A stretch of DNA of 64,000 nt from a virus, in the IMG/VR virus record IMGVR_UViG_3300021387_002242, positions 2,864 to 66,863 of that record; one strand, given 5' to 3'. A program made the translations under genes and the position numbers. Positions 2,401 to 48,356 of this stretch are shown piece by piece. The notes beneath the pieces were generated by a model. The model saw nothing but the letters and a program-made list of their open reading frames with translations, ran no database searches and was not told the origin of the DNA. The first letter of the stretch is position 1. Each line of letters starts with the position of its first letter.

Positions 2401-2447
2401 ATAATACCATAGAACTACTGCAAAGTCAAGTTAAATGAATGATAACT
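2401..2447 (-). promoter_or_regulatory. conserved leftward promoter/operator element, copy 1 (TTGACT-N17-TATTAT on the minus strand)
   Basis: Reverse complement reads agttatcattcatttaacTTGACTttgcagtagttctatggTATTAT; one of seven copies. Confidence 0.5.
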
Positions 2448-2589
2448 AAGAAAATAATACTAAGGGATGCAACGCTCGGCCTTGTGCCGGGCGCTTTTTT
2501 TGTTTTTGGGGTAGAGCTGCCCGAAGATGTCCCGAAACTGGCACAACGCTGTCCTGTCGATTCCAGGGCGAAAAACGGATAATTGAGCT

Positions 2590-2739
2590 ATGAACGAGAT
2601 GATAAAGCGCCTTGAAACAATAGGCGTCGATTGCACAGGAATTATAAAGAGCGTGGAGGATGGCCGGGAAGAAGAAGCGCGGGAATATGCGTTGTATCTG
2701 ATCGCGGTCTTTGACGATAGGCATGAGTATCTGGCGTAG
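2590..2739 (+). CDS. hypothetical small protein (49 aa)
   Basis: ATG ORF MNEMIKRLETIGVDCTGIIK..., below the track length cutoff; weak RBS. Confidence 0.2.
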   Translation: MNEMIKRLETIGVDCTGIIKSVEDGREEEAREYALYLIAVFDDRHEYLA

Positions 2740-3109
2740 TTATAATCCCAACCCTTACATGCGGAACACTATCGACTGTGCTGTCAGAGCAGTGGCAAAG
2801 GCTCTTGATACGGACTGGCATACAGCCAAGGCACTGATAGCGGTCAAGGCTTACAACATCGGTGGGATGGATTCTGGCAACGCAACCTGGGGCGAAGTGC
2901 TCCACGACCACGGATTCAGGAAAGCCCTAATACCGGATACATGCCCGTACTGCTATACAGCGGCAGACTTCGCCAGGGACAACCCGCGTGGTGTGTTCGT
3001 GCTTGGATTCGGAAGCCATGTAGCAACGCTCGAGGACGGAATTCTGTATGACAGTTGGGATTCTTCCCGGGAGATTCCCCAATATTACTGGTATTTACCG
3101 GAGGTGTAA
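2723..3109 (+). CDS. hypothetical protein
   Basis: ORF with coding-like composition; start uncertain. Confidence 0.4.
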   Translation: MSIWRSYNPNPYMRNTIDCAVRAVAKALDTDWHTAKALIAVKAYNIGGMDSGNATWGEVLHDHGFRKALIPDTCPYCYTAADFARDNPRGVFVLGFGSHVATLEDGILYDSWDSSREIPQYYWYLPEV

Positions 3110-3112
3110 AGG

Positions 3113-3661
3113 ATGGCAGCTTACAACAATGGATTTCCGATGAACTACCCCCAGATGTACTACCCACAGTTTCCCCAGCAGTTCCAGCAGCAGTATCAAC
3201 AGCCCATGCAGCAGCAACAGCCCCAGCAGACAGTTCCCCAGCAGCCGGCGCAGCAAACGCAGCAGTACCCGGTTGTCCAGGGCGGCTTTGTTCGGGTGAT
3301 GAACGAGAACGAAGCCAGGATGTACCCGGTCGCCCCGGGCAATAGCGTGACCTTCATCAATGAGAACAGCCCGTACTGCTACACCAAAACGGTGAACATG
3401 GGGCAGCTTGACAGGCCGGTATTCGAGAAATACAGGCTGGTGAAGGAGGATGACACGGCGACGCCCGTAGAGGCCCCACAACGGCCCGTAGAAGCGCCCG
3501 CACCCGACTTTAGCAAGTATGCACTCAAGGACGATGTAGCGGCTTTCAGGGCCGATCTGGAGGCCATCAGGAGCGATATAGAGACGTTCAGGGGTGACCT
3601 TTACGGATTGGCTGGGAAGAAGAAAGCCCCAGCGAAAAAGGAGGTAGCTGTCGATGAATAA
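3113..3661 (+). CDS. Q/P/Y-rich low-complexity protein (spore-coat-like)
   Basis: N-terminus NYPQMYYPQFPQQFQQQYQQPMQQQQPQQTVPQQPAQQTQQYP, then a globular part; RBS ggaggtgtaaaggATG. Confidence 0.5.
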   Translation: MAAYNNGFPMNYPQMYYPQFPQQFQQQYQQPMQQQQPQQTVPQQPAQQTQQYPVVQGGFVRVMNENEARMYPVAPGNSVTFINENSPYCYTKTVNMGQLDRPVFEKYRLVKEDDTATPVEAPQRPVEAPAPDFSKYALKDDVAAFRADLEAIRSDIETFRGDLYGLAGKKKAPAKKEVAVDE

Positions 3662-3872
3662 TCCGTTGTTCGGCGGCACACCGCAAATGAGTGGCCAGAT
3701 GGCGAACATCCAGAGAACGATGCAGCAGTTCCAGCAGTTCAGGCAATCGTTCCAGGGCGACCCACGTCAGCAGGTACAGCAGATGCTTAATAGCGGCAGG
3801 GTTAGCCAGGAGCGATATAACCAGGCGTACCAGATGGCCCAGCAGTTTCAGCAGATGATGGGAGGCAAATAA
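3654..3872 (+). CDS. Q-rich small protein
   Basis: 72 aa, QQFQQFRQSFQGDPRQQVQQ...; ATGA start/stop overlap with the upstream gene. Confidence 0.45.
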   Translation: MNNPLFGGTPQMSGQMANIQRTMQQFQQFRQSFQGDPRQQVQQMLNSGRVSQERYNQAYQMAQQFQQMMGGK

Positions 3873-3874
3873 GC

Positions 3875-4087
3875 ATGATTGACCGGATGGAAAAGAAAAT
3901 CGAGGACTTCATCAATTCCATTATGGAGAAGGACAGCATCGACTTCTGCGATTACCAGATACTTGTCGGCGAGATCAACCGGCAGCATGCGAAGGAACAA
4001 GAGGAAAAGATGAAAGCCGAGAACAAGGCCCAGCAAGAACAGTGGCTTAAAACGCTGACTTCGATGGTTGCGGCAAAGGGTAATTAA
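3875..4087 (+). CDS. hypothetical coiled-coil protein
   Basis: 70 aa, K/E-rich; start 2 nt after the upstream stop. Confidence 0.4.
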   Translation: MIDRMEKKIEDFINSIMEKDSIDFCDYQILVGEINRQHAKEQEEKMKAENKAQQEQWLKTLTSMVAAKGN

Positions 4088-4328
4088 AATCGACTTTAGC
4101 TGTAATGAATGGGATGCAGGTTTATTAAAGTAAACCCTTGTCTGCTTTAGTTACAGCAAAAAAACGCGCAGCAAAGGCTCCAATCTTCGCTGCGCGGACG
4201 GTACACCACCACGGACGCGGCGGCTCCCGGACAAAGCCATTATAGCTGTGTTTCCGTGGTGTGTCAAGCGAATACATCCGTCAATGCGCGCAGACGGTTG
4301 TAAATACACATCGAAAGGAAACAATAAT

Positions 4329-6230: not shown

Positions 6231-6234
6231 AAAC

Positions 6235-6275
6235 AAACCCGCGTAGGCTTGAATGCTTACGCGGGCATTTTTCAC
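6235..6275. terminator. bidirectional rho-independent terminator
   Basis: acccgcgtaggcttgaatgcttacgcggg hairpin with a T-run on the plus side and an A-run on the minus side; separates the convergent + cargo operon from the - accessory operon. Confidence 0.5.
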
Positions 6276-6625
6276 TCGATCAGGGTCGTCCAATCAATGT
6301 CAAGGATTTCCCCGATTTTCATGAGCGTGGTGGTTTTTGGTTTGAATTTGCCGTATTCCCAATATTGGTACTGCTGGACCGGAACACCGAGAGCGTCAGC
6401 CATCATCTGCTGGGTGAATTTCTTATCAACACGCACTTCTGCGAGTTTGGTGTGCGCACGAGTGAACGGAGAAATCCTGTTTGTGGATGACTGTTCGTAC
6501 CATTCGACTACACCAGAAACGCTGTCAATCCAATCCCGGAACTGCTGCACATTCTTGGCGGTGACTTTAGCGTAGAATTCGGATTCGTTGTCCAGCTTGA
6601 CAGAGAAAATATAGTGTCTTTTCAT
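6272..6625 (-). CDS. XRE-family HTH protein with an N-terminal extra domain
   Basis: C-terminal QQMMADALGVPVQQYQYWEYGKFKPKTTTLMKIGEILDIDWTTLIE is an HTH_XRE fold. Confidence 0.5.
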   Translation of the reverse strand: MKRHYIFSVKLDNESEFYAKVTAKNVQQFRDWIDSVSGVVEWYEQSSTNRISPFTRAHTKLAEVRVDKKFTQQMMADALGVPVQQYQYWEYGKFKPKTTTLMKIGEILDIDWTTLIE

Positions 6626-7784: not shown

Positions 7785-8204
7785 TTAGCTCCAAGATGTT
7801 TCAGCCCTCCTTTTCTCGTCGGGGCGGGATGTCCAACAGCGCCAACGAATACCATAGTCATTAGCCATAGCAGTCACTACTTCAAGAAGCTGATTTCTGA
7901 CAGTTACAAAATGAATCACTATAACAATACGATCATTTGCGGTGATTAACACATCTCTCAGCAGCCCAACAATGACATCAGGCTTGTCGTTATCTTCAAG
8001 CCATACGATGCTACCATCTGGCAAAGCCACCACTTCCTCCAGCGTCATCACGCGCGGCTCCTGCGCTTTCAGCAGCGCGAGGGCATCTGTCATCGGCGCG
8101 ATAAACCCGCCTTTTGATTCGCATTCAATCTTATACGGGCACGAATCATCACACCCTTTAATGCAAGTTTCCAACCACTTGATAACCTTCTCCACATTAG
8201 GCAT
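7785..8204 (-). CDS. Cys-rich paralog A1 (KVIKWLE...ALALLKAQEP N-module plus QEPRVMTLEE...WTSRP C-module)
   Basis: One of five paralogs; start moved to MPNVEKV with RBS ggagga. Confidence 0.45.
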   Translation of the reverse strand: MPNVEKVIKWLETCIKGCDDSCPYKIECESKGGFIAPMTDALALLKAQEPRVMTLEEVVALPDGSIVWLEDNDKPDVIVGLLRDVLITANDRIVIVIHFVTVRNQLLEVVTAMANDYGIRWRCWTSRPDEKRRAETSWS

Positions 8205-8475
8205 TTTCATATTCCTCCATCGCAGATTCGTAAAAGTTATCAAACGGTTCCATCTCTCCGTTCATGTGCCAGTTAGCAACTCCAAGCCCCGCTCCGTATA
8301 GATCGTCAAAATATGACTTGAAAGCATAAAGGGCATTCAGCATAGCGAGGGCATCTGTTGCTAATTCTCGTGAACAGTTTAATGTTTCTATCCCCCAATA
8401 CGGGCAGTTTTTCATACACCCCGAACCTGTTGCATGTGCTTCCAGACCCTTGATAACCTTCTCCCTGTTAGGCAT
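8197..8475 (-). CDS. Cys-rich paralog A2 (KVIKGLE...AMLNAL)
   Basis: Paralog of 7785-8204 and 32868-33170. Confidence 0.45.
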   Translation of the reverse strand: MPNREKVIKGLEAHATGSGCMKNCPYWGIETLNCSRELATDALAMLNALYAFKSYFDDLYGAGLGVANWHMNGEMEPFDNFYESAMEEYENA

Positions 8476-8776
8476 TCCACTTCACCTTCCTTCTACAGTT
8501 ATGGCAGTAATTCTCCCCATATCCTATATCTATCAAGCAGTTCCCGCATTGCCATGCCGTGCTTGACCGCTTGCAATCTGGTACATAGTGCATGATCGGC
8601 TTCACCGGCTCCTGCGTTTTCAGCAGTTCAAGGGCATCAGCCATCAACTGCGTATTACATGCTATGGCCTTACCATCTACATCATAGGGACAGCCGTCGC
8701 ATGGCCTGGTATTTTGGTTGAGCATAGTTTGAGTGCAACAAGCCAACCCAGAAATCACTTTTTCAAGTTCGTTCAT
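8468..8776 (-). CDS. Cys-rich paralog A3 (KVISGLACC...LELLKTQEP plus a C-terminal Zn-ribbon)
   Basis: Paralog; C-terminal CGNC...CHNC. Confidence 0.45.
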   Translation of the reverse strand: MNELEKVISGLACCTQTMLNQNTRPCDGCPYDVDGKAIACNTQLMADALELLKTQEPVKPIMHYVPDCKRSSTAWQCGNCLIDIGYGENYCHNCRRKVKWNA

Positions 8777-10767: not shown

Positions 10768-10799
10768 GGTGGTTTTCCCCTTTCCCTTGATCTGAGACA

Positions 10800-10846
10800 A
10801 TATTACCATAGAAGTATTGCAAAGTCAAGCTAAGTGTATGATAACT
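10800..10846 (-). promoter_or_regulatory. conserved leftward promoter/operator element, copy 2 (TTGACT-N17-TAATAT)
   Basis: Reverse complement reads agttatcatacacttagcTTGACTttgcaatacttctatggTAATAT. Confidence 0.6.
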
Positions 10847-10858: not shown

Positions 10859-11818
10859 TCACGCGATAGCCCCAGCCTGGTCAAGGACATGCAGCATACC
10901 TTCGATTTTATCACGGCAAGCGATTACTTCAAGCCAGGGGCGCGGGATTGCGCCGTAGCCGTAGTAAAGGCCAGCCAGACCGCCAGCAACGGCAGCTACG
11001 GTATCAGTGTCGTCCCCAAGGTTGACGGCGGCGAGAAGGGCCGCTGAGAGCCTGTGAGAGCATGCCAGGCACCACACAGCCGCTTCGAGCGTGTCCACGA
11101 CATAGCCAGAGCTTTTGATCGCGGTGACTGGGAGAGCGGCAAAGGCTTTCACATCGAACAGACGGCGATACTGGTACAGTTCTGACTTATCGTCGAGGCA
11201 AGCGGTATAGAACGCGACGCCATCATCGATACCACGCTGCAGCGCGTCGATCAAACGACCAGGATGATTCACAATTGACTTTGCCAGGAAGTAGTACAGA
11301 CCACAACCAATCCTGGAACGAAGATGGGCATGGGTGAGAGCACTGACGCGGTCGATGGTTGAAATAGCCACACGATCTGGAAGCTCTCTGTCCAGGCACC
11401 AGAGCACAACTGGCATGATACGCATAAGGCTACCGTTCCCGTTGTCTGCTTCGTTTCGGCTGCCACACTGTGTAACATCCGCTCCATCGATGTATCTCTG
11501 GATTGCTTCTCTCGTTCCGCGCCCAACTCCGAAGGTAAAGCCATAAGGTGTGAACGAACCGTCCTGAAGCCAACGACAAAAATTGCACATGATATCATCC
11601 AGATCAATAACACCACGTCGTTTGATGCTTTCAACGGTCGCAATGGTCATGGACGTGTCGTCAGTCCAAGTCCCAGCCGGAAGCGAATACGTGCCGAAAC
11701 CACGCATGTCTCCGACTGAATTCATGGCAAGCTGGGAGCGGTTCATCATCTCAACCGGGCGACCCAGAGCGTCGCCAACGACGACGCCCATGATTGCAGA
11801 TTTCCACATGTTCAGCAT
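10859..11818 (-). CDS. ADP-ribosylglycohydrolase (ARH/DraG family)
   Basis: N-terminal GVVVGDALGRPVE and C-terminal LGDDTDTVAAVAGGLAG motifs of the ADP-ribosylglycohydrolase family. Confidence 0.8.
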   Translation of the reverse strand: MLNMWKSAIMGVVVGDALGRPVEMMNRSQLAMNSVGDMRGFGTYSLPAGTWTDDTSMTIATVESIKRRGVIDLDDIMCNFCRWLQDGSFTPYGFTFGVGRGTREAIQRYIDGADVTQCGSRNEADNGNGSLMRIMPVVLWCLDRELPDRVAISTIDRVSALTHAHLRSRIGCGLYYFLAKSIVNHPGRLIDALQRGIDDGVAFYTACLDDKSELYQYRRLFDVKAFAALPVTAIKSSGYVVDTLEAAVWCLACSHRLSAALLAAVNLGDDTDTVAAVAGGLAGLYYGYGAIPRPWLEVIACRDKIEGMLHVLDQAGAIA

Positions 11819-13561: not shown

Positions 13562-13610
13562 ATGTTACATTGTTTATGCTGCAAAGTACACTAAGAAACA
13601 GCTAAATGGG
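13562..13610 (-). promoter_or_regulatory. degenerate copy 7 of the conserved leftward promoter element
   Basis: agctaaatggg ... -35-like TGTACT, N17, TAACAT on the minus strand, just upstream of the amidoligase operon. Confidence 0.35.
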
Positions 13611-13861: not shown

Positions 13862-13908
13862 ATATTACAATAGAACTATTGTAAAGTAAAGCTAAATGAA
13901 TGATAACT
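13862..13908 (-). promoter_or_regulatory. conserved leftward promoter/operator element, copy 3 (TTTACT-N17-TAATAT)
   Basis: Reverse complement reads agttatcattcatttagcTTTACTttacaatagttctattgTAATAT. Confidence 0.55.
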
Positions 13909-14229
13909 AAATAGAGAATGGGAGGAAGCGATAGGTGGCTGCCGGGAATGAAAAAACGCCCCGGCGAATGCCAGGACGCAGACATAAGAAAAAGGCCGGT
14001 TGCCCGACCTTATCCCTTCGCTCAATGCGAAGTCCAGATATTGCGGCAGGATTCTCACCTGCACGAAGCCACCACAGCTTCAAATCAGCATCTTCCATAT
14101 AACCGCACAGATGTTGGTTAGTCATTCTGTGGGCCGTCATGGATAAACGGGATTTCACCGTTTCACGGCTATTATGCGTCTGCTTCCGCCACGCAATACC
14201 CCCGCGCAAGCGCGGCCCCTCCAACTACT

Positions 14230-14552: not shown

Positions 14553-15722
14553 CTAATCAGCGTTTTTTTGCAGGTACTTGGACAACTTGGATGCTCCATC
14601 CTTGCCCGCGTCTTCGGTGTAAGCCATATAGACATCCAGGGTCATGCTCGCCTTTTTATGGCCCAGGTTGTGCTGTACGGTTTTGACGTCCATACAGGAC
14701 CGCAGAGCGGCAACAGCATAAGAGTGCCGGAGGTCATGCGGGTGTAGCTCTGGAATCCCTATATCCATACCAACGCGGCGAACACAGGTAAAAATGGTCT
14801 TCTCACCGTGGGCTTTCCCATCACGCTGACGGAACACCAGGTCGTGACTCAACTCATCATCACACCAGTCTCCACCCTTTGCTATGCGCTGTTCCGCTTG
14901 CTTGCGGCGTTGATCGCGCAGTATATCTATAGCTTCCTTTGGGAGATGAATCAAACGCTCCTCCTCATATTTCGGCGGGGTTATGCGCTGAATACTAATG
15001 GACTTAGCATGGAGCTGACGCTGGACAAACATTGTGCCGACATCGAAATCAACGTCAGACCAGCGCAGCCCGCGCACTTCTCCGATTCGCAACCCGGTAT
15101 AGAGCATGAAAATCAGCTCGTTCCCGTACCTGGTTTTATTGGCGGCAGCGATGAAGTCTTGGAACTGTGTCCGCTCGATGATGTGGAACTTCTTAACCTT
15201 GCCACGGGAGACGGACACAAGTGCTGCCGGGTTTTCTTTAATCAGCCTGGATTCGATAGCGCAGTTTAACGCGGTTCTCAAGATGCGGCAGTAATTGCTG
15301 ATGGTAACCTGGGACAGACCACGATCTTGCATGGACGAAACCATACGGCGAACGTGGATAGGGGCGAGTTTAGACAGCTTCACGTCACCAATGGTCGGCT
15401 TGAAGTTATGGTTCAATATAGATTTGTACTTGATAACTGTGCGCTCGGAGTTTTCGCCCTGATAATCGGCAATCCAGATGTCCAACCATTGCGAGACAGT
15501 CATTTTTGACGGTTCACGCCAGATGCCGGAATCCAGCTCGTGTAGCTGTGTGCGCAGCTTTGTGGTAACTTCTTTCTCGGTTTTGGCATAAACGGAGCGC
15601 TGCCGGCCATCGGGAGTGGTGTACCTGGCTTCCCAACGGCCATCGGAGCGTTGACGGATGGAACCCATGCCGTTATTCGACCGGGAGTTCTTCTTCTTCG
15701 GCAAAATAACGCCACCTTTCAT
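14553..15722 (-). CDS. int: tyrosine-type site-specific integrase
   Basis: N-terminal arm-binding-like GSIRQRSDGRWEARY, core-binding and catalytic domains with the R...HDLRH...Y pattern (HPHDLRHSYA...LGH...Y). Confidence 0.85.
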   Translation of the reverse strand: MKGGVILPKKKNSRSNNGMGSIRQRSDGRWEARYTTPDGRQRSVYAKTEKEVTTKLRTQLHELDSGIWREPSKMTVSQWLDIWIADYQGENSERTVIKYKSILNHNFKPTIGDVKLSKLAPIHVRRMVSSMQDRGLSQVTISNYCRILRTALNCAIESRLIKENPAALVSVSRGKVKKFHIIERTQFQDFIAAANKTRYGNELIFMLYTGLRIGEVRGLRWSDVDFDVGTMFVQRQLHAKSISIQRITPPKYEEERLIHLPKEAIDILRDQRRKQAEQRIAKGGDWCDDELSHDLVFRQRDGKAHGEKTIFTCVRRVGMDIGIPELHPHDLRHSYAVAALRSCMDVKTVQHNLGHKKASMTLDVYMAYTEDAGKDGASKLSKYLQKNAD

Positions 15723-15724: not shown

Positions 15725-16138
15725 TTAATGTTGGGCCAGACTTTCCAGATCGTCACGATACATGTCGATAGCCATTTGTGCGAACTCCTGCGTTACGTCG
15801 AAATAGTCGGCCAATGCCCACGGCGACCAGTAGCCCAGATGAATGGCGCGAAGGACATCATGGTATGGCATCAATAACTCTACAGCGCGTTTATTCGCTT
15901 TGTACTCGCATTTCTCCCAGTTATCGTACAGGGAATAGACGTTGTAGAAGCTTCCAGTCTCTATGTGCCCCAGCTCGTGAGCTAGGGCACATTTTAATTC
16001 CGCATCGCTTTCAAACTTATCAAGGTCTACAAAAACATACCCAGTCTGAAAAACAGCCGCCTTCAATGCCCGCGTGTGTATTTCCACAACCTCAAACCCA
16101 TGAGATGCGATTCTGTCGTAAAGCTCGTAAGTTTTCAC
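15725..16138 (-). CDS. ImmA/IrrE-family metallopeptidase (anti-repressor protease)
   Basis: HELGHIETGSF HExxH motif; adjacent to and co-oriented with the repressor. Confidence 0.7.
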   Translation of the reverse strand: MKTYELYDRIASHGFEVVEIHTRALKAAVFQTGYVFVDLDKFESDAELKCALAHELGHIETGSFYNVYSLYDNWEKCEYKANKRAVELLMPYHDVLRAIHLGYWSPWALADYFDVTQEFAQMAIDMYRDDLESLAQH

Positions 16139-16153: not shown

Positions 16154-16546
16154 CTATTGTCGGTTACGTCTGGCAATAATTATGTCTGCCATGGCATTAA
16201 GATCAACTAATTCATCTCTGCTAAAATCTTTCGTTTTCTTATGTACAGCAAATTCGAGCGATTCACGGGTGAGTGGACTTTCTTCTGTTACAAGAGCCTG
16301 GACACCTTCATGCTCTTGTTGGGATTGTGCATCTGGATTGTCGTATGACGCTGGGACCGGTTCGTACCCAAGTATAACTCCGTTCGTTACGCCGAAATAG
16401 TCAGACAGCTTAGTCAGTCTTTCACCGCGCGGGTCTTTCTTCTGGTTCCACCAGTCACTAATAGTGGGCCGAGACACTCCAATGCTAATCGCCAACTGCT
16501 TCTGCAAAATACCTTTTCTATCAGATAATTCCTTTACGCGGTTCAT
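16154..16546 (-). CDS. cI-like XRE-family repressor
   Basis: N-terminal HTH (LQKQLAISIGVSRPTISDWWN); divergent from cro. Confidence 0.7.
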   Translation of the reverse strand: MNRVKELSDRKGILQKQLAISIGVSRPTISDWWNQKKDPRGERLTKLSDYFGVTNGVILGYEPVPASYDNPDAQSQQEHEGVQALVTEESPLTRESLEFAVHKKTKDFSRDELVDLNAMADIIIARRNRQ

Positions 16547-16593
16547 CTGTGTGTCCTCCTTTCATTTATTAGCTAAATGTATTTTAACATAAA

Positions 16594-16619
16594 AAATTAG
16601 CTATTTCAAGAAAAATAAA
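16594..16619 (-). promoter_or_regulatory. PRM-like promoter for the repressor (TTGAAA-N17-TAAAAT on the minus strand)
   Basis: Hexamers spaced 17 bp apart, upstream of the cI RBS. Confidence 0.4.
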
Positions 16620-16642: not shown

Positions 16643-16671
16643 TTGACATTCAGCTATCAATGTGATACACT
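16643..16671 (+). promoter_or_regulatory. PR-like early promoter (TTGACA-N17-TACACT)
   Basis: Near-consensus hexamers; a TTAGCTAAAAG operator-like site overlaps +1. Confidence 0.55.
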
Positions 16672-16703
16672 TAGCTAAAAGACAAAAGCAGAGGGGTGAG
16701 ATA

Positions 16704-16907
16704 TTGAATAACATCAAGGGACTGAGAGAAAAGCTGGGCATTACCCAAAAGGCACTGGCATGGGAAGCCGGTGTTTCTGCGCCTTTCCTGTATGATCTGG
16801 AGAATGGCAACAGGAACGCGAAGCCGGAAACTCTACAGCGCATCGCAGACGTGCTGGGATGCACGGTTGAAGAACTGGCTGGTGAGACTGGAGGTGAGAC
16901 TGAATGA
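16704..16907 (+). CDS. Cro-like XRE HTH regulator
   Basis: TTG start after RBS gaggggtgag; LREKLGITQKALAWEAGVSAPFLYDLENG HTH. Confidence 0.6.
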   Translation: MNNIKGLREKLGITQKALAWEAGVSAPFLYDLENGNRNAKPETLQRIADVLGCTVEELAGETGGETE

Positions 16908-17128
16908 CTTTTGAGGAAGTCAACGCCAGAATCAAGAGACTGAACGCGCAGATACGGCAGCGCAATGACTTCCTTGCGGCAACACGCGCGGCAGACCACC
17001 TTCCTGACGGTGATCTGGACACGCTCTATGACACGCTGAAAGCGGAGATCAAGCGCCGGAACGACGTCGACAGTGAGATCTGTGATCAGCTGTACGAGTA
17101 CCGGGACAGATTGGAGGAAATCGCATGA
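16904..17128 (+). CDS. hypothetical protein
   Basis: Translationally coupled ORF. Confidence 0.4.
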   Translation: MTFEEVNARIKRLNAQIRQRNDFLAATRAADHLPDGDLDTLYDTLKAEIKRRNDVDSEICDQLYEYRDRLEEIA

Positions 17129-40571: not shown

Positions 40572-41162
40572 GGCAACACAATGCACCCGATACGTGTTAA
40601 TATGCAAATGTGCACATCCGGGGCCACGTCGTCCCGGTGCATTATGCGAGCGGTAGATGAATAGTCCCGCTCACAGGTTGTGCTACCCGGGGACTTTCCC
40701 AAAGCGGTGCTCGGGAGCGGGATTTAAACAAAGAGTGTGGGGCTTTACAGTTTTCACCCATACCGCCTCCTTTTCACGTTGGTGGGGACGGGTGAGGCAA
40801 CAAGAAAACAACGCGACACCGGAGCGCGTAATCTCCGGAGACATGCCGTTGCTGGACAGCTTGCGCCCAGGGGAACCGCCTGGACTGGCTCCCGGTTCGA
40901 CACCGGGGACGGCACCACGTGACTTCTGGCATGGGATTTGTCATTGGTCACCTCCTTTCCAGGCTATAAGCCGAGCCGCATACTTCTTGTTGGGCTTTGC
41001 AGATTCACCAGCAAGCGGTATGGGTGCCCGCCTGTCGTCACCGTGTGGTTTGCCGGGACGATCAAAGGCGGGCTAAAAGGGTAAGAGCTTTGCACGCGAG
41101 CCGAGAGGCAGCGAACCACGCAAGGACATTTATACAGGCCAGAGTAAAGATCTGGCCACGTG
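40572..41162 (+). ncRNA. candidate large structured non-coding RNA (ROOL/GOLLD-like?) immediately upstream of the tRNA
   Basis: About 590 nt, GC-rich with many short complementary segments and no credible ORF (the track ORF 40657-41076 is P/G/R-rich and not coding-like); abuts a tRNA in a prophage, the characteristic context of ROOL/GOLLD RNAs. Confidence 0.3.
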
Positions 41163-41238
41163 GGAGATTAGCTCAGTAGGTAGAGCAGCAGGCCGTTAAC
41201 TTGCGCGTCCGGGGTTCAAGTCCCTGATTTCCCGCCAG
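41163..41238 (+). tRNA. tRNA, probably Asn (GTT anticodon), with encoded CCA
   Basis: Cloverleaf folded by hand: acceptor GGGAGAT/ATTTCCC, D-arm GCTC-AGTAGGTA-GAGC, anticodon arm GCAGG-CCGTTAA-CTTGC, T-arm CGGGG-TTCAAGT-CCCTG, discriminator G plus CCA. Position 33 is C rather than U, which is unusual. Confidence 0.65.
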
Positions 41239-41497
41239 CCCAGTATACAATAGGGTTCCAAGTGTAATGCGCCACTTGAACAAAAAGCACGGGTGTCCCG
41301 GGATAATGCTTGTATGCGGCAAAAGCCCGGGCCGATCTTCAGACGTTGTGGGGTAAACAGCGTCCACCAACACAATGCCGGGTAACGCGAGGGTGTTTAC
41401 ACCAGCCCGCGAGGGTGGTAGTCGCGCCGGATTGTTTAGGCGGTTAATGGCGTACAGAGATACGCCGACCGCCTTTTTTCATGCTGTAGGAGGCTCC

Positions 41498-41610
41498 ATG
41501 AAAATCATACAGAAACCAACAGAGCAGCTTATACCTTACGCGGCAAATGCCAAGCTGCATGATGAAACGCAGATCGCAAATGTAGCGAACAGCATAAAAA
41601 ATGCCCCCGA
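41498..41610 (+). pseudogene. 5' remnant of a ParB-like nuclease-domain gene, truncated by a cassette insertion
   Basis: MKIIQKPTEQLIPYAANAKLHDETQIANVANSIK is about 80% identical at nt level to the 5' end of 41986-43272, then diverges into the cassette terminator. Confidence 0.5.
41528..41599. repeat. direct repeat (about 72 bp, about 80% identical, 26-nt perfect core) with 42016-42087, flanking the inserted cassette
   Basis: aagctgcatgatgaaacgcagatcgc core is identical in both copies. Confidence 0.5.
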
Positions 41611-41618
41611 AGGGGGGC
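41593..41618 (-). terminator. terminator of the leftward cassette
   Basis: cccccgaagggggg hairpin with a T-run on the minus strand. Confidence 0.4.
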
Positions 41619-41620
41619 GG

Positions 41621-41896
41621 TTAGCCAACGTTGGGAAGCCGGTAGGGGTAATGCCCGTACAAAGCACGGTAGGCTTCGGTGTATGGCGCGTAGCCGTGGC
41701 CTTCCAGCAGGTACTGCCGGGTCTTTTCCAGCAGGGCGATCATGAACTCGCGGTGCATGGTGACCGTAACCCGCGTCCGAACCTTCATGGGTTCGACTTC
41801 GTACATACCGAAGTCGGTCATGCCGTACTTCTCGGCGACATTGAACAGGGCGGCAAGGGCATCACGGTGAATGTTGAAGGTGATGGTAGACGTCAT
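41621..41896 (-). CDS. hypothetical protein (cassette cargo)
   Basis: 91 aa, downstream of promoter copy 4. Confidence 0.45.
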   Translation of the reverse strand: MTSTITFNIHRDALAALFNVAEKYGMTDFGMYEVEPMKVRTRVTVTMHREFMIALLEKTRQYLLEGHGYAPYTEAYRALYGHYPYRLPNVG

Positions 41897-41927: not shown

Positions 41928-41975
41928 AGTATAGCATAAAAAATGATGCAAAGTCAAGCTAAGAGTATGATAAAC
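41928..41975 (-). promoter_or_regulatory. conserved leftward promoter/operator element, copy 4 (TTGACT-N18-TATACT)
   Basis: Reverse complement reads gtttatcatactcttagcTTGACTttgcatcattttttatgcTATACT. Confidence 0.55.
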
Positions 41976-41985: not shown

Positions 41986-43272
41986 ATGAACATAGTCAGT
42001 ATGCCAACGGTAGACCTCATACCGTATTCCGCAAACGCGAAGCTGCATGATGAAACGCAGATCGCTAACGTTGCGAACTCAATAAAACGCTTCGGGTGGC
42101 AACAGCCCATAGTGGTAGACGACAACAATGTGGTCGTCATAGGCCATTGTCGTCTGCTTGCGGCGAAGCGGCTGGGACTACAGGAAGTCCCAGTGACGGT
42201 TGCCAGCGGTTTGACGGATGAAGAAATCCGAGAACTGCGAATCGCAGACAATAAGACCAATGAAAGCGCCTGGAACTGGGAAATGCTGGAACAGGACAGG
42301 GCTGGTCTTGCGTTTGACGGCTTCGAGTTCGAGTGGGTGAATCCGGACGGTGAGGAACCGGCATTCGAGGAACCAGAGGCCATAGAGGATAACTTCGACG
42401 AAGAAGATATTCCCGAAGAATCCGACATCAAATACGGCGATGTTTTCCTGCTCGGCCGGCACAGATTGGTCTGCGGTGACAGCACGAATATTGACGACGT
42501 AAAGAAGCTGATGGACGGAGCACAGGCTGATCTGTTCCTGACAGACCCGCCGTATAACGTGGACTACCATGGCAGCACTGGCATGACGATAGCGAACGAC
42601 AGCATGGAGGATAGCGCGTTCAGAGCGTTCCTCACGGATGCTTTCAGTAACGCAAACCTGGTCATGCGTCCCGGGGCTGCTATTTATATATGGCATGCAG
42701 ACAGTGAGGGCTTCAACTTCCGCGCCGCTATGCGTGAAGTAGGCTGGAAGCTGCGCCAGACACTAATCTGGGTAAAGAATGCCCCGGTGCTAGGCCGCCA
42801 GGATTACCTCTGGAAACATGAGCCGGCACTTTATGCGTGGAAGGAAGGAACTCACTACTTCACCAGCGACAGGACAAACAAAACAGTCTTTGACGACAGA
42901 ATCGACATAAAGAAACTCAAGAAGGAAGAAATGAGAGCGCTTCTTGAGAAAATCTTTGCCGACAGAGTGCTGACGACGGTCTTGTACGAGGACAAGCCGC
43001 TGGTGAACGATCTCCACCCAACCATGAAACCGATTCGGCTCATGGCGCGGTTGATTGCCAACAGTTCACAACCCGGGTGGCGGGTGCTTGACTTGTTCGG
43101 TGGCAGTGGTTCAACGCTGATGGCTTGCGAGCAGCTCGGGAGAACATGCTACACTATGGAACTCTCCCCGACTTACTGTTCCGCAATCATAAAGCGCTAT
43201 ATCAAGTTCACCGGCGAGGATGTGTTCTTACTCCAGGACGGAGAAAAAATACAATATATCCCGGAGGATTGA
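41986..43272 (+). CDS. ParB-like nuclease domain fused to an N6-adenine/N4-cytosine DNA methyltransferase
   Basis: N-terminal ParB-N (IPY.ANAK.H...IANSI..FG..QPIVV...VV.GH.RL.AAK.LG); C-terminal DPPY (LTDPPYN) and FGGSGST AdoMet-binding motifs. Confidence 0.75.
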   Translation: MNIVSMPTVDLIPYSANAKLHDETQIANVANSIKRFGWQQPIVVDDNNVVVIGHCRLLAAKRLGLQEVPVTVASGLTDEEIRELRIADNKTNESAWNWEMLEQDRAGLAFDGFEFEWVNPDGEEPAFEEPEAIEDNFDEEDIPEESDIKYGDVFLLGRHRLVCGDSTNIDDVKKLMDGAQADLFLTDPPYNVDYHGSTGMTIANDSMEDSAFRAFLTDAFSNANLVMRPGAAIYIWHADSEGFNFRAAMREVGWKLRQTLIWVKNAPVLGRQDYLWKHEPALYAWKEGTHYFTSDRTNKTVFDDRIDIKKLKKEEMRALLEKIFADRVLTTVLYEDKPLVNDLHPTMKPIRLMARLIANSSQPGWRVLDLFGGSGSTLMACEQLGRTCYTMELSPTYCSAIIKRYIKFTGEDVFLLQDGEKIQYIPED

Positions 43273-44400: not shown

Positions 44401-44445
44401 GGTGGTTTCTCCTTTCGTTGGTCGGTGCTCTTTCGTTCTGGGTAC

Positions 44446-44492
44446 ATATTACACTGTATAAAGTACAAAGTCAAGCTAAGTGTATGATAACT
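44446..44492 (-). promoter_or_regulatory. conserved leftward promoter/operator element, copy 5 (TTGACT-N17-TAATAT)
   Basis: Reverse complement reads agttatcatacacttagcTTGACTttgtactttatacagtgTAATAT. Confidence 0.6.
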
Positions 44493-45947: not shown

Positions 45948-46787
45948 ATGGGACGTGGAAGAAGCGGCAGGAGTTCTGGCACCAGGCAGCAGACGGTGAC
46001 GCTTCCAACCTGGGGTGAGGCTTTTGGTGACGGCAACGATTACCAGTCGACCCGTGATGTCGATCACGTTTCAAGAACTGTTACGCGGCGGCTGCAGCAC
46101 GACTGGGATCAGTTCGCGGATGATTATCAGTCTGGCATAACTTCTATGGATGTACAGCGATTGATGAAAGACTACGACCCGTATACGGATTCTTTGTACG
46201 GGTATGTCAGAACATCGAATTCGTTTGCTATAAACGAAAAGCTGTACGACGATCAGAACGTCAATAAGACTGATGACCAGATCTTCACCCGGCGAGATCA
46301 AAGGGGCGTGCTTAGAGATTTGCAGACAGTCCAAACTCTGGACAAGGCGATCAATAGTCATACCACTAAGCGTAATGCCACCTACACGCGGTTCTCTACA
46401 CCGGCAGCAGTTCAAGCGTTGTACGGTTTGAATAACCAGCAGATGTCGATCCTGCAAAATGCCAGGGGCATGAACAATCAACAGCTCAAAGCACTGAATG
46501 ATTCATTTGCAGGTAAAACTAGTTACTCTCGAGCATATACATCTACTTCCGCAAACCGATCTATGAATGCTTTCGGCAACTTGAACGCGCGGCATTCCAG
46601 AAACATGGTGTTCGAAAGAAAGCTGTACATGCCACAGGGTACAAACGCTTTTGCGGTTAAGCAGAACGCGCAAGAGAGCGAGGTCATCTTCGGCCGGCAT
46701 GCGAACACTAGGCTGATGAAGGTCACGGTTGCGAGCGACGGACACATCGTGCTACATGAGATGTTCACCGGTTATAATAGGCATTGA
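45948..46787 (+). CDS. ADP-ribosyltransferase-like effector (R-S-E class) with the MGRGRSGR N-terminal module
   Basis: Y-x-STS (AYTSTSANRS) and Q/E-x-E (QESEVIF) motifs with upstream aromatic-Arg (YGYVR) fit C3/VIP2-type ART signatures. Confidence 0.55.
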   Translation: MGRGRSGRSSGTRQQTVTLPTWGEAFGDGNDYQSTRDVDHVSRTVTRRLQHDWDQFADDYQSGITSMDVQRLMKDYDPYTDSLYGYVRTSNSFAINEKLYDDQNVNKTDDQIFTRRDQRGVLRDLQTVQTLDKAINSHTTKRNATYTRFSTPAAVQALYGLNNQQMSILQNARGMNNQQLKALNDSFAGKTSYSRAYTSTSANRSMNAFGNLNARHSRNMVFERKLYMPQGTNAFAVKQNAQESEVIFGRHANTRLMKVTVASDGHIVLHEMFTGYNRH

Positions 46788-47029: not shown

Positions 47030-47052
47030 AACTCACCGACATTATAACGGAC

Positions 47053-47083
47053 AAAGCAGCGGCATAAAACCCGCTGCTTTTTG
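47053..47083 (+). terminator. rho-independent terminator
   Basis: agcagcggcataaaacccgctgct plus ttttg. Confidence 0.55.
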
Positions 47084-47102
47084 CGCCCTTTGAAATAAAA
47101 CC

Positions 47103-47786
47103 ATGACGATAACAGGAATTGCGGTTGATGCTCTGAAAAGGTACAACAATAACGCAAAGGAACATCCACAGGAGCAGATCGACAAGATCGCTGAGAGCAT
47201 CCGTCAATTTGGTTTCAGGCAGCCGATAGTTGTTGACAGCAGCAACGTGGTTGTTATTGGACACGGACGGCTTCTTGCAGCAAAGGCTCTGGGGATGAAG
47301 CAAGTCCCGTGCGTGGTTATTGACGACCTGACAGAGGACGAGATCAACGCACTTCGCCTGATAGACAATAAGCTCAACGAAAGCAAATGGGACTTTTCCG
47401 CTCTTGAAGATGAACTCGCCACTATCGTCGACATCGACATGTGGGATTATGGATTCGAGCCTTTCAGTGAGCAGGAAATGGAAGCGGCTACGGCGGCATT
47501 TCAGGAGCGCGTAGAAGCCATGGCGCAGGAAACGCGCCCAGACGGCCAGGAAGGGCCATATGAGCGCGGCTACACTGTAGGGCAAAGAGAGACAAGCCCG
47601 TATGCAACGGCAGGAAATTACGGCGTTTCTGGACGTCCAGCGAATCAGCTCCAAGCGACATACCCGCACGACGAATACGGATATGTAGATGAATATGGGC
47701 GGCAGATCGTGGGAGAGCGCAGCCTGATAGAGGCAAACCGGGAGTACCGGTATGTATGCCCACGGTGCAAGCATCGGTTCAACTGA
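47103..47786 (+). CDS. ParB-like nuclease-domain protein
   Basis: ParB-N motifs (AKEHPQEQIDKIAESIRQFGFRQPIVVD...GHGRLLAAKALG); C-terminal Zn-ribbon CPRCKH. Confidence 0.7.
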   Translation: MTITGIAVDALKRYNNNAKEHPQEQIDKIAESIRQFGFRQPIVVDSSNVVVIGHGRLLAAKALGMKQVPCVVIDDLTEDEINALRLIDNKLNESKWDFSALEDELATIVDIDMWDYGFEPFSEQEMEAATAAFQERVEAMAQETRPDGQEGPYERGYTVGQRETSPYATAGNYGVSGRPANQLQATYPHDEYGYVDEYGRQIVGERSLIEANREYRYVCPRCKHRFN

Positions 47787-47797
47787 AAAAACCCAGC

Positions 47798-47998
47798 TCA
47801 GTGCTGGGGCAGGTACACGGGGTATTTACCATATATGGCCTTGAATGCTTCTGCGAACGGAGTAGGGTCACCGGTATCGCAGAGAACTCTAAAAGCCTTA
47901 CGCAAAGCCCGCTGCTTTTTCAGCTGCCGAATCTGCTTGATGGCATCGTAGTTCTGCATTGTTGCGGCCTCCTTTCGGGTCAAGTTAATGGTTTGCAT
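47798..47998 (-). CDS. hypothetical small protein
   Basis: Leftward cassette cargo. Confidence 0.4.
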   Translation of the reverse strand: MQTINLTRKEAATMQNYDAIKQIRQLKKQRALRKAFRVLCDTGDPTPFAEAFKAIYGKYPVYLPQH

Positions 47999-48027
47999 CC
48001 TTTCTTGGTTGTTGAAAACGATGGGGC

Positions 48028-48264
48028 TTAGTCTATGAAGTAAATTCCGTTTTCTTCGTGGAAGCAGGTGTTGCCGAACTCGTTTCTGATGATAAAGTCT
48101 GCATCTTCTTTCGTAGCAGGGAGTTCGACGCCATTCCCATAGATTGCATCACCATCGTGGTTGATGTCGTTTAGGTCGTGGACATAAAGCCCTACATACG
48201 TCTCGCCGTCGTAGATGTACTTGATCTCGGTGAACTCGATGTTGTTGATAATGACAGTATTCAT
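48028..48264 (-). CDS. hypothetical small protein
   Basis: First gene after promoter copy 6. Confidence 0.4.
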   Translation of the reverse strand: MNTVIINNIEFTEIKYIYDGETYVGLYVHDLNDINHDGDAIYGNGVELPATKEDADFIIRNEFGNTCFHEENGIYFID

Positions 48265-48309
48265 TGTGGTAACCTCCTTGATCCGTTGCGTTTCCTTTGG
48301 AACGATTAC

Positions 48310-48356
48310 ATACTACATCAGAAATAATGTAATGTCAAGCTAAATGAATGATAACT
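48310..48356 (-). promoter_or_regulatory. conserved leftward promoter/operator element, copy 6 (TTGACA-N17-TAGTAT)
   Basis: Reverse complement reads agttatcattcatttagcTTGACAttacattatttctgatgTAGTAT. Confidence 0.6.

Follow-up and report, generated by a model that had tools for sequence, protein, structure and literature searches.

A repeated promoter and upstream box head leftward accessory units of a temperate gut phage and share a sequence word with its immunity region

The window analysed here is a 64,000-nt stretch (positions 2,864 to 66,863) of the IMG/VR virus record IMGVR_UViG_3300021387_002242, from a phage genome of ~76 kb. Six copies of a promoter-like element lie on its minus strand at the coordinates given in an earlier note on this DNA, and pattern searches match these positions and nowhere else. 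A 30-mer search returned five matches at up to three mismatches (none expected), and the 18-bp box gave seven (0.11 expected), namely the six elements and a site on the PRM side of the cI/cro region. The search also took in the other ~12 kb of the phage genome, where no additional copy turned up. The degenerate seventh copy described in the same note is real as well. The copies are:

E1, 2401–2447, minus strand: box 2430–2447 (AGTTATCATTCATTTAAC), -35 TTGACT 2424–2429, TG-extended -10 TATTAT 2401–2406
E2, 10800–10846, minus strand: box 10829–10846 (AGTTATCATACACTTAGC), -35 10823–10828, -10 10800–10805
E3, 13562–13608, minus strand: degenerate copy that keeps ATTTAGC (distal position) and ACTTTGCA and has lost the -35 hexamer
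E4, 13862–13908, minus strand: box 13891–13908, -35 TTTACT 13885–13890, -10 13862–13867
E5, 41928–41975, minus strand: box 41958–41975 (GTTTATCATACTCTTAGC), -35 41952–41957, -10 TATACT 41928–41933, 18-nt spacer
E6, 44446–44492, minus strand: box 44475–44492, -35 44469–44474, -10 44446–44451
E7, 48310–48356, minus strand: box 48339–48356, -35 TTGACA 48333–48338, -10 TAGTAT 48310–48315

The units under these elements differ in length and content. E1 precedes a unit (2372→1552) that includes a hammerhead ribozyme, and E2 a long operon (10767→6272) with DUF5049, CxxCxxCC, ArdC-N/MPTase and terminal HTH genes. Downstream of E3 lies an operon (13523→10859) with amidoligase, DpnD-PcfM, GGACT and ADP-ribosylglycohydrolase genes. 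E4, which has two minus-strand terminators (14011–13992 and 13979–13956) just upstream, precedes a 46-aa ORF (13812→13672); E5 forms a unit of promoter, 91-aa gene (41896→41621) and terminator; E6 heads four small genes (44400→43390), and E7 genes of 78 and 66 aa (48264→47798). A leader, CAGATCAAGGG at 2385–2395 in E1, is also found after E2 (10784–10794) and E6 (44430–44440). The terminators of three units are:

6234–6251, minus strand: terminator-like site past the final gene of the E2 operon, overlapping a plus-strand terminator (6238–6265)
41603–41618, minus strand: intrinsic terminator of the E5 unit, GCCCCCCTTCGGGGGC followed by a T-run
47792–47808, minus strand: intrinsic terminator of the E7 unit

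The statement that the element drives every leftward cassette was too broad. The RHH gene (20839–21009, minus strand) has its own promoter without a box, no box accompanies the minus-strand consensus promoters at 4267 and 14303, and the only copy ahead of the amidoligase operon is the decayed one. The identifiable cargo consists of ArdC-N with a metallopeptidase (MPTase), Amidoligase_2, GGACT, DpnD/PcfM, ADP-ribosylglycohydrolase and DUF5049; the small cassette proteins had no match in PHROG. Judged on the identifiable part of the cargo, the genes appear to be of anti-restriction or establishment type.

The elements are, as had been claimed, sigma-70/sigma-A-type promoters at the head of minus-strand units. 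The 18-bp box AGTTATCATWCAYTTAGC (-53 to -36) is followed by a -35 hexamer (TTGACT, TTGACA or TTTACT), a spacer of 17 nt (18 nt in E5) and a -10 hexamer (TAATAT, TATTAT, TAGTAT or TATACT), which is preceded by TG in several copies; a Shine-Dalgarno sequence and an ATG lie 35–60 nt downstream of each element. Conservation begins abruptly at AGTTA. Pairwise identity among the copies is 0.86 in the box, 0.89 in the -35, 0.73 in the -10 and 0.63 in the spacer, whereas upstream it is 0.28, the random level; the box is thus conserved, under a constraint as strong as that on the -35 hexamer and above that on the spacer.

The box contains two TTAKC words in phase, TTATC from -51 and TTAGC from -40, 11 bp apart. 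Across 19 promoters of three phages, all TTAGY words within 60 nt of the -35 begin at -39/-40 or -50/-51, apart from two TTAGT words, which begin at -55 and belong to window copies. CI-type dimers do not usually bind direct repeats spaced by a single helical turn, and a strict helical register is more typical of activators or RNA polymerase-contacting proteins; both observations weigh against the control by CI or Cro proposed below, as do the word positions, which fall within 1–2 bp of alpha-CTD minor-groove positions. The last point, which extends to repeats at -40, -51, -61 and so on, suits a reading of the box as a promoter-strength element (UP-like alpha-CTD docking or phased bending) with no dedicated regulator, its likeness to immunity sites being fortuitous and its identity among copies a result of recent duplication or gene conversion. 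In its favour, A+T makes up 72% of the box in a 52% G+C genome, the relative L030 has A/T-tract UP-like sequences (A6T7 tracts) at the box position, and a single ancestor could account for all copies. We nevertheless regard this reading as very unlikely. Read directly, the box misfits the UP consensus; the G and C of TTAGC were kept while the spacer diverged, so that homogenisation alone is insufficient; and an identical 8-mer occurs at PR and PRM downstream of the -10, where UP function would be senseless. Moreover, one copy in a relative is a full 16-bp palindrome, and the boxes are phage-specific, clear palindromes flanking the -35 and lying in the spacer in L034 and L024. As read here, the box is neither spacer nor generic UP element.

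The 8-mer in question, [AT]CAYTTAG, which lies proximally in the box, is half of a 16-bp palindrome (ACAYTTAG joined to CTAARTGT, or AATTAGCTAATT) and recurs exactly at two operator-like sites, at PR and PRM. Two occurrences in the 157-bp cI/cro gap correspond to P(≥2) = 0.0005 in composition-matched shuffles, or to P ~0.005 after correction for ~11 possible windows, the 8-mer having been picked post hoc. The proposed link between the box and the immunity region is supported by this common core (P ~5e-4 before correction), but the count of three cores in the gap was only partly right: exact TTAGCTAA is present at 16569 and 16671, and the third gap site (16597) is a variant, ATTAGCTAT. Elsewhere in the 64 kb there is one more exact TTAGCTAA, at 24354, where it falls within a plus-strand promoter's spacer. 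The relevant sites and genes are:

16565–16580, no strand assigned: PRM operator-like site, TTAGCTAA at 16569–16576
16593–16608, no strand assigned: middle operator-like site AAAAATTAGCTATTTC, overlapping PRM -35 TTGAAA (16609→16604)
16667–16682, no strand assigned: PR operator-like site, ACACTTAG directly followed by CTAAAAGA, overlapping PR -10 TACACT (16666–16671) and the +1 region
24347–24375, plus strand: promoter TTGACT-17-TACAAT with TTAGCTAA at 24354–24361 in the spacer, upstream of a ParB-like gene (24412–25215)
16154–16546, minus strand: CI-type repressor, 130 aa, HTH_3; leading candidate for box binding
16704–16907, plus strand: Cro-like HTH_3 protein, 67 aa, TTG start; alternative candidate
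6272–6625, minus strand: HTH_3 protein, 117 aa, final gene of the E2 operon; rival candidate, as autoregulator

The left half of the PR site is identical to the E2/E6 box, and the PRM -10 TAAAAT (16586→16581) is followed immediately by a half-site, ACATTTAG (16580→16573, minus strand). The palindrome appears to mark candidate operators at PR, PRM and the third promoter at 24347. Among the candidates for box binding, the CI-type repressor is the most probable and Cro a possible one; the repressor gene is followed by those for an ImmA-like M78 peptidase (15725–16138) and a tyrosine integrase (14553–15722).

Related phages bear on this assignment. In phages whose CI helix-turn-helix domain is similar, the operators are AATTAGCTAATT palindromes; the switch region of L026, which resembles this phage in the CI N-domain and in Cro, contains three AATTAGCTAAWT palindromes, of which one falls in the PR spacer. 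In L023, with a ~60% identical CI helix-turn-helix domain, TTAGCTAA is found in the switch region and again at 18332, upstream of the same ParB-like gene as the window promoter at 24347. At least 11 promoters of the family occur in the relative with 83% TerL identity (L008, L023, L036), each with TTAGY from -40 or -51; most of that relative's sites are at -51, clear of the -35, and one copy is a perfect 16-bp palindrome, ACACTTAGCTAAGTGT. L028 has six TTAGY words in phase from -40 to -93. In L037, whose repressor is unrelated, 20.8 kb contain three copies of the 8-mer GTATTAAA: one lies in the switch region and the other two in separate accessory boxes. L024 has GTTAT/ATAAC words in switch region and boxes alike. 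In these two phages the box word co-varies with that of the switch region. By contrast, L034, L032, L074 and L033 have one CI helix-turn-helix domain in common, with the operator ATAG-N7-CTAT, and their accessory promoters have different boxes unrelated to it; control by CI is therefore no general rule of the family.

That clade (L034, L032, L074), with the same CI yet different boxes, favours the view that the boxes are operators of some other regulator encoded in the regulon, which would produce a self-limiting burst after entry. Precedents are the Reg576 regulon of establishment genes on the Bacillus pumilus conjugative plasmid p576, which is experimentally proven (Val-Calvo et al. 2018, PMC6294495), and ArdK with the CUP elements (PMC6289460). 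First among the candidates is the HTH protein of 6272–6625, orthologues of which, with variable recognition helices, come after the ArdC gene in at least seven related phages; L032 and L035 pair the same terminal HTH with similar boxes. The RHH protein (20839–21009) and the Xis-like HTH_17 protein (17332–17523) are further candidates, proteins of these two types being a better match for phased direct repeats than CI dimers are, and the palindromes around the -35 and in the spacer in L034 and L024 also agree with this view. However, the recognition helices of the terminal HTH are nearly identical in L074 and L024, whose boxes differ, and the word in the promoter of the RHH gene itself is GTAAC-N4-GTTAC instead of TTAGC. 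In the window and its closest relative, furthermore, the box word is that of the cI/cro operators and the 24347 spacer, which is not expected for an unrelated regulator. We consider such a regulator unlikely.

The earlier note placed the site at about -45, suited to activation, and saw the cassettes as a repressor-co-regulated lysogenic-conversion regulon. The model for such a reading is lambda CI, which activates PRM from OR2. The boxes do share the immunity-operator half-site, and, across rearranged boxes of three phages, the TTAGY words closest to the -35 stay in strict helical register with it (-40, -51, with further turns in L028), a face-of-helix dependence typical of activators. Most sites in the 83%-TerL relative are at -51 without overlapping the -35, and lysogen-expressed morons are usually oriented opposite to lytic operons. 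Neither claim finds support, however. In the window copies the half-operator dyad, at ~ -36.5, falls on the -35 hexamer. The promoters come close to consensus, in several cases with a TG-extended -10, and should need no activator; the cargo that can be identified is of a type needed at entry and not in a lysogen. The tested analogue is a repressor system: the p576 operators, directly upstream of the -35 in extended -10 sigma-A promoters of ardC-type genes, repress (PMC6294495). Activation by box-bound CI in the lysogen is accordingly quite unlikely, and the effect of box occupancy is more likely to be repression of early genes, since a dimer at ~ -36.5 would sit over the -35 hexamer and the promoters should work unaided. 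In the window copies just one half of the operator is present, the -35 hexamer taking the place of the other, so that binding of a symmetric dimer is not assured.

We are evenly divided on the reading that we prefer, binding of CI (or Cro) to the boxes with joint, most likely repressive control of all units. Each element would be the self-contained expression head of a backward-pointing accessory unit, made of a strong promoter for host RNA polymerase (sigma-A/sigma-70 type) and the 18-bp upstream box, with or without the conserved leader. This head may have spread by duplication or recombination to six units and the decayed seventh copy. On naked incoming DNA the units, as early genes of 'establishment' or anti-restriction type, would be expressed immediately, until a DNA-binding protein from the immunity region occupied the boxes and jointly shut them off, CI in the lysogen or Cro later in infection.

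Judging by their own terminators and by the different slots and cargo seen in relatives, the cassettes behave like morons. A lambdoid moron is a promoter–gene(s)–terminator unit set between two genes that neighbour each other in relatives, and the E5 and E7 units are clean examples. In classical morons, however, the promoters are individual and unrelated and expression typically comes from the prophage, whereas here one promoter-operator head is reused, lysogen expression is doubtful and the cassettes show no clear difference in composition. The suggestion that the element serves as a recombination boundary gains indirect support, in that the 83%-TerL relative has cassettes in different intergenic slots and with different genes.

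Similar regulons are known from phage P1 and from plasmids. The C1 operators of P1 and the stoperators of Cluster A mycobacteriophages are many dispersed, asymmetric sites for one immunity repressor, by which immunity control reaches accessory operons far from the switch region, as proposed for this phage. Stoperators, however, lie within transcribed regions and block elongation, whereas the sites described here are upstream of or over the -35 of a conserved promoter, and the repeated unit is the entire promoter, not the operator alone. The likeness to p576 (PMC6294495) extends further: both elements have several sigma-A promoters with a TG-extended -10 before an ardC-type gene and small uncharacterised genes, units transcribed opposite to the main operon, a short direct-repeat motif directly upstream of the -35 with extra copies otherwise arranged at some promoters, and a single element-encoded protein over all promoters, as we infer for the phage. 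The p576 repressor, however, is an RHH protein with the motif TTATCCC at a 9-bp period, whereas the phage motif is TTAKC at 10.5–11 bp; it is a half-site of the phage's own cI/cro operators, in a temperate phage, while the p576 system is plasmid-borne and experimentally proven. The CUP (conserved upstream) elements of the IncN plasmid pKM101/R46, with ArdK (Delver & Belogurov 1997, cited in PMC6289460), are likewise repeated upstream sequences with an operator before anti-restriction and other leading-region genes, and the bound repressor also governs its own gene; they differ in lying in a plasmid leading region, in Gram-negative hosts, in their sequences and protein family and in having no link to a lysogeny switch. 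The PeSL (promoter-early stem-loop) cassettes of T4-type phages (Arbiol et al. 2010, PMC2839356; PMC4122927) also place many near-identical strong sigma-70-like early promoters beside small non-essential ORFan genes in plastic regions, and recombination between copies shuffles their cargo among close relatives, much as the cassettes described here vary in slot and cargo. PeSLs, however, combine a promoter with a terminator stem-loop and no repressor operator, whereas a stem-loop accompanies only some copies in this phage, which is temperate and has every copy antisense to the main transcription. Headed by near-identical promoters whose boxes carry the word of the phage's own operator-like sites, the accessory genes of these units are probably switched together.

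The window belongs to a temperate siphovirus-like phage whose immunity module lies on the minus strand in the order CI (an HTH_3 protein, 16154-16546), ImmA-like M78 peptidase and tyrosine integrase, with Cro (16704-16907, plus strand) divergent from it, and whose plus strand carries the replication, ParB/methyltransferase, terminase and head genes. Seven copies of a ~47-bp promoter-plus-box element, E1 to E7, head minus-strand accessory cassettes.

Copies of the element and the units they head
2401-2447, minus strand: E1; small ORFs and a hammerhead ribozyme
10800-10846, minus strand: E2; 4.5-kb operon with DUF5049, CxxCxxCC, ArdC-N plus MPTase-PolyVal and a terminal HTH_3 gene
13562-13608, minus strand: E3, degenerate, with ATTTAGC and ACTTTGCA retained and the -35 hexamer gone; decayed head of a unit with Amidoligase_2, DpnD/PcfM, GGACT and ADP-ribosylglycohydrolase
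13862-13908, minus strand: E4; 46-aa ORF
41928-41975, minus strand: E5; 91-aa ORF
44446-44492, minus strand: E6; four small ORFs
48310-48356, minus strand: E7; two small ORFs

The repeated element described at these sites in an earlier note was borne out by pattern searches of the window, as six minus-strand promoter copies and the degenerate E3. The 30-nt core had five matches at up to three mismatches (none expected) and the 18-bp box had seven (0.11 expected), of which six are the elements and one is a site within the cI/cro gap, the intergenic immunity-switch region with PR and PRM. No further copy was found in the 12 kb of the ~76-kb phage genome that lie outside the window. In the minus-strand reading, the box AGTTATCATWCAYTTAGC occupies positions -53 to -36 of each copy and is followed by the -35 hexamer TTGACT (TTGACA in E7, TTTACT in E4), a spacer of 17 nt (18 nt in E5) and a -10 hexamer that reads TAATAT, TATTAT, TAGTAT or TATACT, often directly preceded by TG. 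The six copies score 9-10 out of 12 against TTGACA/TATAAT with spacers of 17 ± 1 nt, as expected of sigma-70/sigma-A promoters. A Shine-Dalgarno sequence and an ATG follow 35-60 nt further on from each promoter, and their position is the one feature that supports a predicted start ~7 nt 3' of the -10 hexamer. When the copies are aligned, the likeness starts abruptly at AGTTA and fades past the -10.

The E5 and E7 cassettes are clean promoter-gene-terminator units (terminators 41618-41603 and 47808-47792, respectively) and the E2 operon ends at a terminator-like site (6251-6234), so that these three have a promoter and terminator of their own, as morons do; the ends of the E1 and E6 units are less clear-cut. 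The G+C content of the units (45-55% vs 50-52% in the flanks) showed no clear compositional difference of the moron type, and ten cassette proteins had no match in PHROGs. A type II hammerhead ribozyme (RF02276, 41.2 bits vs a gathering threshold of 37) lies at 1747-1811 on the minus strand between the ORFs 2086→1811 and 1734→1552, inside the E1 unit, whose polycistronic RNA may therefore cleave itself. Small paralogues ending in Y(R/K)A(L/I)YG.YP.Y.P are found in separate E-headed cassettes, at 41621-41896 and 47798-47998 (both minus strand) and in a related phage (locus L008, 1465-1600, minus strand). Three tandem small Cys-rich genes of the E2 operon (7785-8725, minus strand) and two plus-strand genes (32868-33544) share the motif (E/D)KVIKxLE...DALA(L/M)LKAQEP and thus represent one small-protein family encoded on both strands. 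An ADP-ribosyltransferase (ADPrib_exo_Tox, 45948-46787, plus strand) is encoded in the window along with the ADP-ribosylglycohydrolase (10859-11818, minus strand) of the leftward accessory operon. Just downstream of the E5 terminator are ~900 bp with no convincing ORF (40572-41497), where tRNA-Asn(GTT) is located (41162-41237, plus strand).

The view that the element drives every leftward cassette proved overstated, as the box is missing from a gene for a 56-aa RHH-like protein (20839-21009) and from two consensus promoters at 4267 and 14303. The RHH unit (20839-21130, minus strand), which is conserved in relatives (L023 14673-14852, L024 12540-12716), has its own TG-extended promoter, surrounded by GTAAC-N4-GTTAC-type palindromes, and its own terminator. 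The promoter at 4267→4239 (minus strand), a 12/12 match of the form TTGACA-17-TATAAT, lies between plus-strand genes and is followed ~40 nt on by a strong terminator with a 12-bp stem (4196→4165); the unit is a candidate small RNA. The second 12/12 promoter, with TG (14303→14275, minus strand), is downstream of the integrase gene; with terminators at 14011-13992 and 13979-13956 it would yield a ~270-320-nt transcript close to the likely attachment site.

Comparison of six copies by segment gave mean pairwise identities of 0.86 for the box, 0.89 for the -35 hexamer, 0.63 for the spacer, 0.73 for the -10 hexamer, 0.43 for the first 25 transcribed bases and 0.28 for the sequence upstream of the box. 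Thus, conservation of the box is as strong as that of the -35 hexamer, whereas the spacer has drifted, a pattern that recent duplication or gene conversion alone does not explain. A single-strand (Frpo-type) promoter or hairpin was rejected, since DNA folds of the six elements had z-scores from -0.96 to +1.06, indicating no structure; Rfam had no match over the elements. The UP-element consensus of A/T tracts at -57 to -38 is not matched either: on direct reading the box fits poorly (4/9 for the proximal subsite). The G and C positions of the box are conserved, and A/T tracts at that position are seen only in the relative L030.

The box shares its words with the immunity switch. The sequence TTAGCTAA occurs three times in the whole window, twice in the cI/cro gap, where a variant of it is also present.

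Occurrences of the box core outside the elements
16569: TTAGCTAA, directly past the PRM -10
16597: variant ATTAGCTAT, over the PRM -35
16671: TTAGCTAA, overlapping the PR -10 and +1
24354: TTAGCTAA, within the spacer of the plus-strand promoter that precedes a ParB-like gene

At the PR site (16667, plus strand), ACACTTAG is an exact match to the proximal box 8-mer [AT]CAYTTAG and the same sequence as in E2 and E6; at the PRM site (16580, minus strand), the 8-mer is matched again by ACATTTAG, which may be compared with TCATTTAG in E4 and E7. At least two such matches in the 157-bp gap have a probability of 0.0005 in composition-matched shuffles, or roughly 0.005 once the choice of the stretch within the box is allowed for. 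The core that the earlier note saw in both the boxes and the cI/cro region is therefore upheld (at the uncorrected P of 0.0005), and the boxes have this 8-mer in common with the PR and PRM sites, as CI/Cro operators should. A DarA_C (defence against restriction) protein is encoded at 17125-17322 (plus strand), among the first rightward early genes beside Cro, so that anti-restriction-type functions are also expressed from PR.

Unlike a classical operator, the window boxes have no dyad symmetry: each consists of one half-site and the core, and the -35 hexamer stands in place of the other half. In related phages, loci of which bear L-numbers here, the symmetric form can be seen. The switch region of L026, which has a similar CI N-domain and Cro, contains three AATTAGCTAAWT palindromes; one of these falls within the PR spacer. 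L023, whose CI helix-turn-helix domain is ~60% identical, has TTAGCTAA at two places, its switch region and the sequence preceding the orthologous ParB-like gene, and one accessory promoter of the same phage contains the perfect 16-bp palindrome ACACTTAGCTAAGTGT (L036 12236-12251), the one copy in this relative with operator-type symmetry. Judged by their sequences, the L026, L023 and L036 sites would define the operator. Since the window carries the half-site of these palindromes, its box can be read as one good half-operator plus core, in which the second half-operator appears to have been replaced by the -35 hexamer, with the dyad at about -36.5.

We infer the identity of the binding protein from such comparisons, which favour CI or Cro in this phage. 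The evidence consists of words that switch region and boxes have in common, both in this phage and in the relative closest to it, together with two more distant cases. L037, which has an unrelated repressor, contains the 8-mer GTATTAAA at only three places within 20.8 kb, namely its switch region (P 0.02, uncorrected) and two accessory boxes, with one copy each; in L024, GTTAT/ATAAC words are found in the switch region and boxes alike, which lends weak co-variation support. Against CI control as a general rule, L034, L032, L074 and L033 have one common CI helix-turn-helix domain and the operator ATAG-N7-CTAT, whereas the accessory boxes of these phages differ both from each other and from that operator.

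The HTH_3 protein encoded at the end of the ArdC operon (6272-6625) is a rival candidate: its gene is conserved in this place in at least seven phages, with variable recognition helices, and L032 and L035 have both the terminal HTH and the box type in common. However, L074 and L024 have the recognition helix in common but not the box, and the identity of the box word with the cI/cro sites speaks against an autoregulated repressor internal to the regulon. An RHH protein or a Xis-like one, such as that encoded at 17332-17523, would suit the phased direct repeats, although the promoter of the RHH gene itself is without the box word. GTTATCA was discarded as a link to the RHH promoter, being a common word (17 copies). 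CI or Cro continues to be the favoured binder in this phage.

A family of similar promoters was found in related phages. JGI Ga0394155_0000188 (60.5 kb; 83% TerL identity; covered by L008, L023 and L036) has the same design, in which small cassettes on the minus strand are interspersed with syntenic ParB/methyltransferase genes on the plus strand, and at least 11 promoters of the family, whose core TTGACWTTG.TAC..TTTTGTGGTAT and leader CAGWTCAAGGG resemble those of the window; in most copies the TTAGC word is shifted 11 bp upstream. TTAGY pentamers were tabulated for 19 promoters of three phages: that of the window, this relative and L028 (85% TerL identity). Those within 60 nt of the -35 all start at -40/-39 or -51/-50, except for TTAGT at -55 in E1 and E4; beyond 60 nt there is a TTAGT at -69 in E1 and another at -62 in the relative's L008 6424. 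One L028 promoter has six in-phase TTAGY words, at -40, -51, -61, -72, -82 and -93. The distal word of the window copies is TTATC, at -51.

More distant members of the family keep the promoter and leader and have different upstream and spacer sequences: A/T tracts in L030, two ATAACGTTAT palindromes in L024, two CATC-N3-4-GATG palindromes in L025/L034 (repeated in a second copy), a 15-bp direct repeat in L037 and further box types in L032, L035 and L074. The leader, yCAGWTCAAGGGAAC, begins ~5 nt after the -10 (in the window, 2385-2395, 10784-10794 and 44430-44440) and is found in more than eight phages (L008, L024, L025/L034, L028, L029, L030, L032, L035, L036, L037 and L074), a wider distribution than that of the box; its conceivable roles are those of an operator at +1, an initial transcribed sequence or a 5' stabiliser resembling an SD sequence.

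Exact element patterns had no matches in viral_contigs (two patterns) or genome_contigs (one pattern), and the four in metagenome_contigs all came from the same phage at 100% identity, with no independent relative among them; this phage is found at about 100% identity in several metagenomes, with those behind SRR873601, ERZ12302816 and ERZ28612940 as examples of gut samples that contain it. The looser TTATCA-N4-YTTAGCTTGAC gave mostly single chance matches in unrelated contigs and one true relative. A pattern scan of viral_contigs revealed no relative of the CI protein, a large protein collection contained only four homologues of it, and GenBank phages included no close relative (TerL <60% identity), the sole nucleotide matches being to the amidoligase gene of Acutalibacteraceae phages. 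NatCom_991 was rejected as a relative, being a different phage in which the element is absent. L001 encodes a 75% homologue of an E6 gene within an operon lacking the element. An automated k-mer screen of 30 further loci for dispersed operators was too noisy.

The earlier proposal that a repressor bound at about -45 activates these promoters in the lysogen fared less well. The promoters are near consensus, several with an extended -10; the window copies have their dyad over the -35 hexamer; the recognizable cargo is of the anti-restriction or establishment type; and the analogous promoters of plasmid p576, with repeats abutting the -35, are repressed (PMC6294495). If some protein binds, we therefore consider repression distinctly more probable than activation, and as regards expression of the cassettes in the prophage, too, the sequence would argue more for repression. 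Activation or a mixed mode, as the less probable alternative, would fit the strict helical register of the TTAGY words and those sites of the relative that have only the -51 word and are clear of the -35. On a more speculative and rather improbable reading, promoter, phased half-operator and leader would make up a portable expression head, in use among a large group of phages of gut Clostridia, that captures small ORFan genes and moves them between intergenic slots; an immunity protein would polymerize along one DNA face on TTAGY words one turn apart and touch RNA polymerase, repressing at -40 and activating or fine-tuning from -51 and beyond; the regulon would then be graded and position-coded, and linked to the lysis-lysogeny switch.

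The plus-strand genes of the window and the 83%-TerL relative are syntenic but the cassettes are not. The genes for C5-MTase and ParB-DUF4417, which abut in the window (49907/49912), have two cassettes between them in L008; the E7 slot is occupied there by an FtsK-like gene; in L023 the E6 genes are part of the main accessory operon; and the gene for the small YG.YP.Y.P protein is on the opposite side of its ParB neighbour. Like morons, the cassettes are thus inserted between genes that are neighbours in related phages. Beyond the E5 cassette, the 5' end of the adjacent ParB-N6/N4-methyltransferase gene is present a second time as a ~105-bp duplicate (about 80% identical; 41498-41600 vs 41986-42090), which resembles a scar left by cassette insertion or by recombination among ParB paralogues; the window has five ParB_N-type genes, at 24412, 41986, 47103, 48368 and 49912. 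These differences in slot and cargo, along with the E5 duplicate, fit moron-like gain and loss. By analogy with T4 PeSLs (PMC2839356), they would be compatible with recombination at the repeated heads; comparison of the window with the relative demonstrated no breakpoint inside the element. Stem-loops are found upstream of E1 (2473-2493), E4 (13956-14011) and, weakly, E7 (48418-48435), and there are none by E2, E5 or E6. Thus, the PeSL composite of early promoter and terminator stem-loop in every copy is not seen here. The resemblance to morons and PeSLs is one of evolutionary behaviour.

In regulation, the element recalls the Reg576 and ArdK-CUP establishment regulons, where several promoters have a common operator at or beside the -35; here there are six copies, with ArdC-N/MPTase and amidoligase among the cargo. 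In p576, ardC and its neighbours are served by four sigma-A promoters with an extended -10 and dual direct repeats right upstream of the -35; Reg576 represses these promoters, resulting in a transient burst of expression after entry (PMC6294495). The dispersed C1 operators of phage P1 and the stoperators of Cluster A mycobacteriophages offer functional resemblances. By sequence or protein family, the element is outside the Reg576, ArdK/CUP, P1 C1, stoperator, moron and PeSL kinds; it is best described as a reused promoter head, with a box of helically phased immunity half-operators, at the start of antisense accessory cassettes. The principle of this neat architecture is already established in other systems.

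If this is true, the immunity switch is extended to at least six dispersed antisense units, and a single repeated promoter-operator head times a set of anti-defence-type and ORFan genes. That would tie phage biology to the entry regulons of conjugative plasmids (Reg576, ArdK/CUP). The TTAGY register nearest the -35 and the leader, present in more than eight phages, are possible search signatures for accessory and anti-defence cassettes in metagenomic phages, and, with sites, candidate proteins and predicted starts defined, the element provides an entry point into the scheduling of 'establishment' genes by uncultured gut phages.
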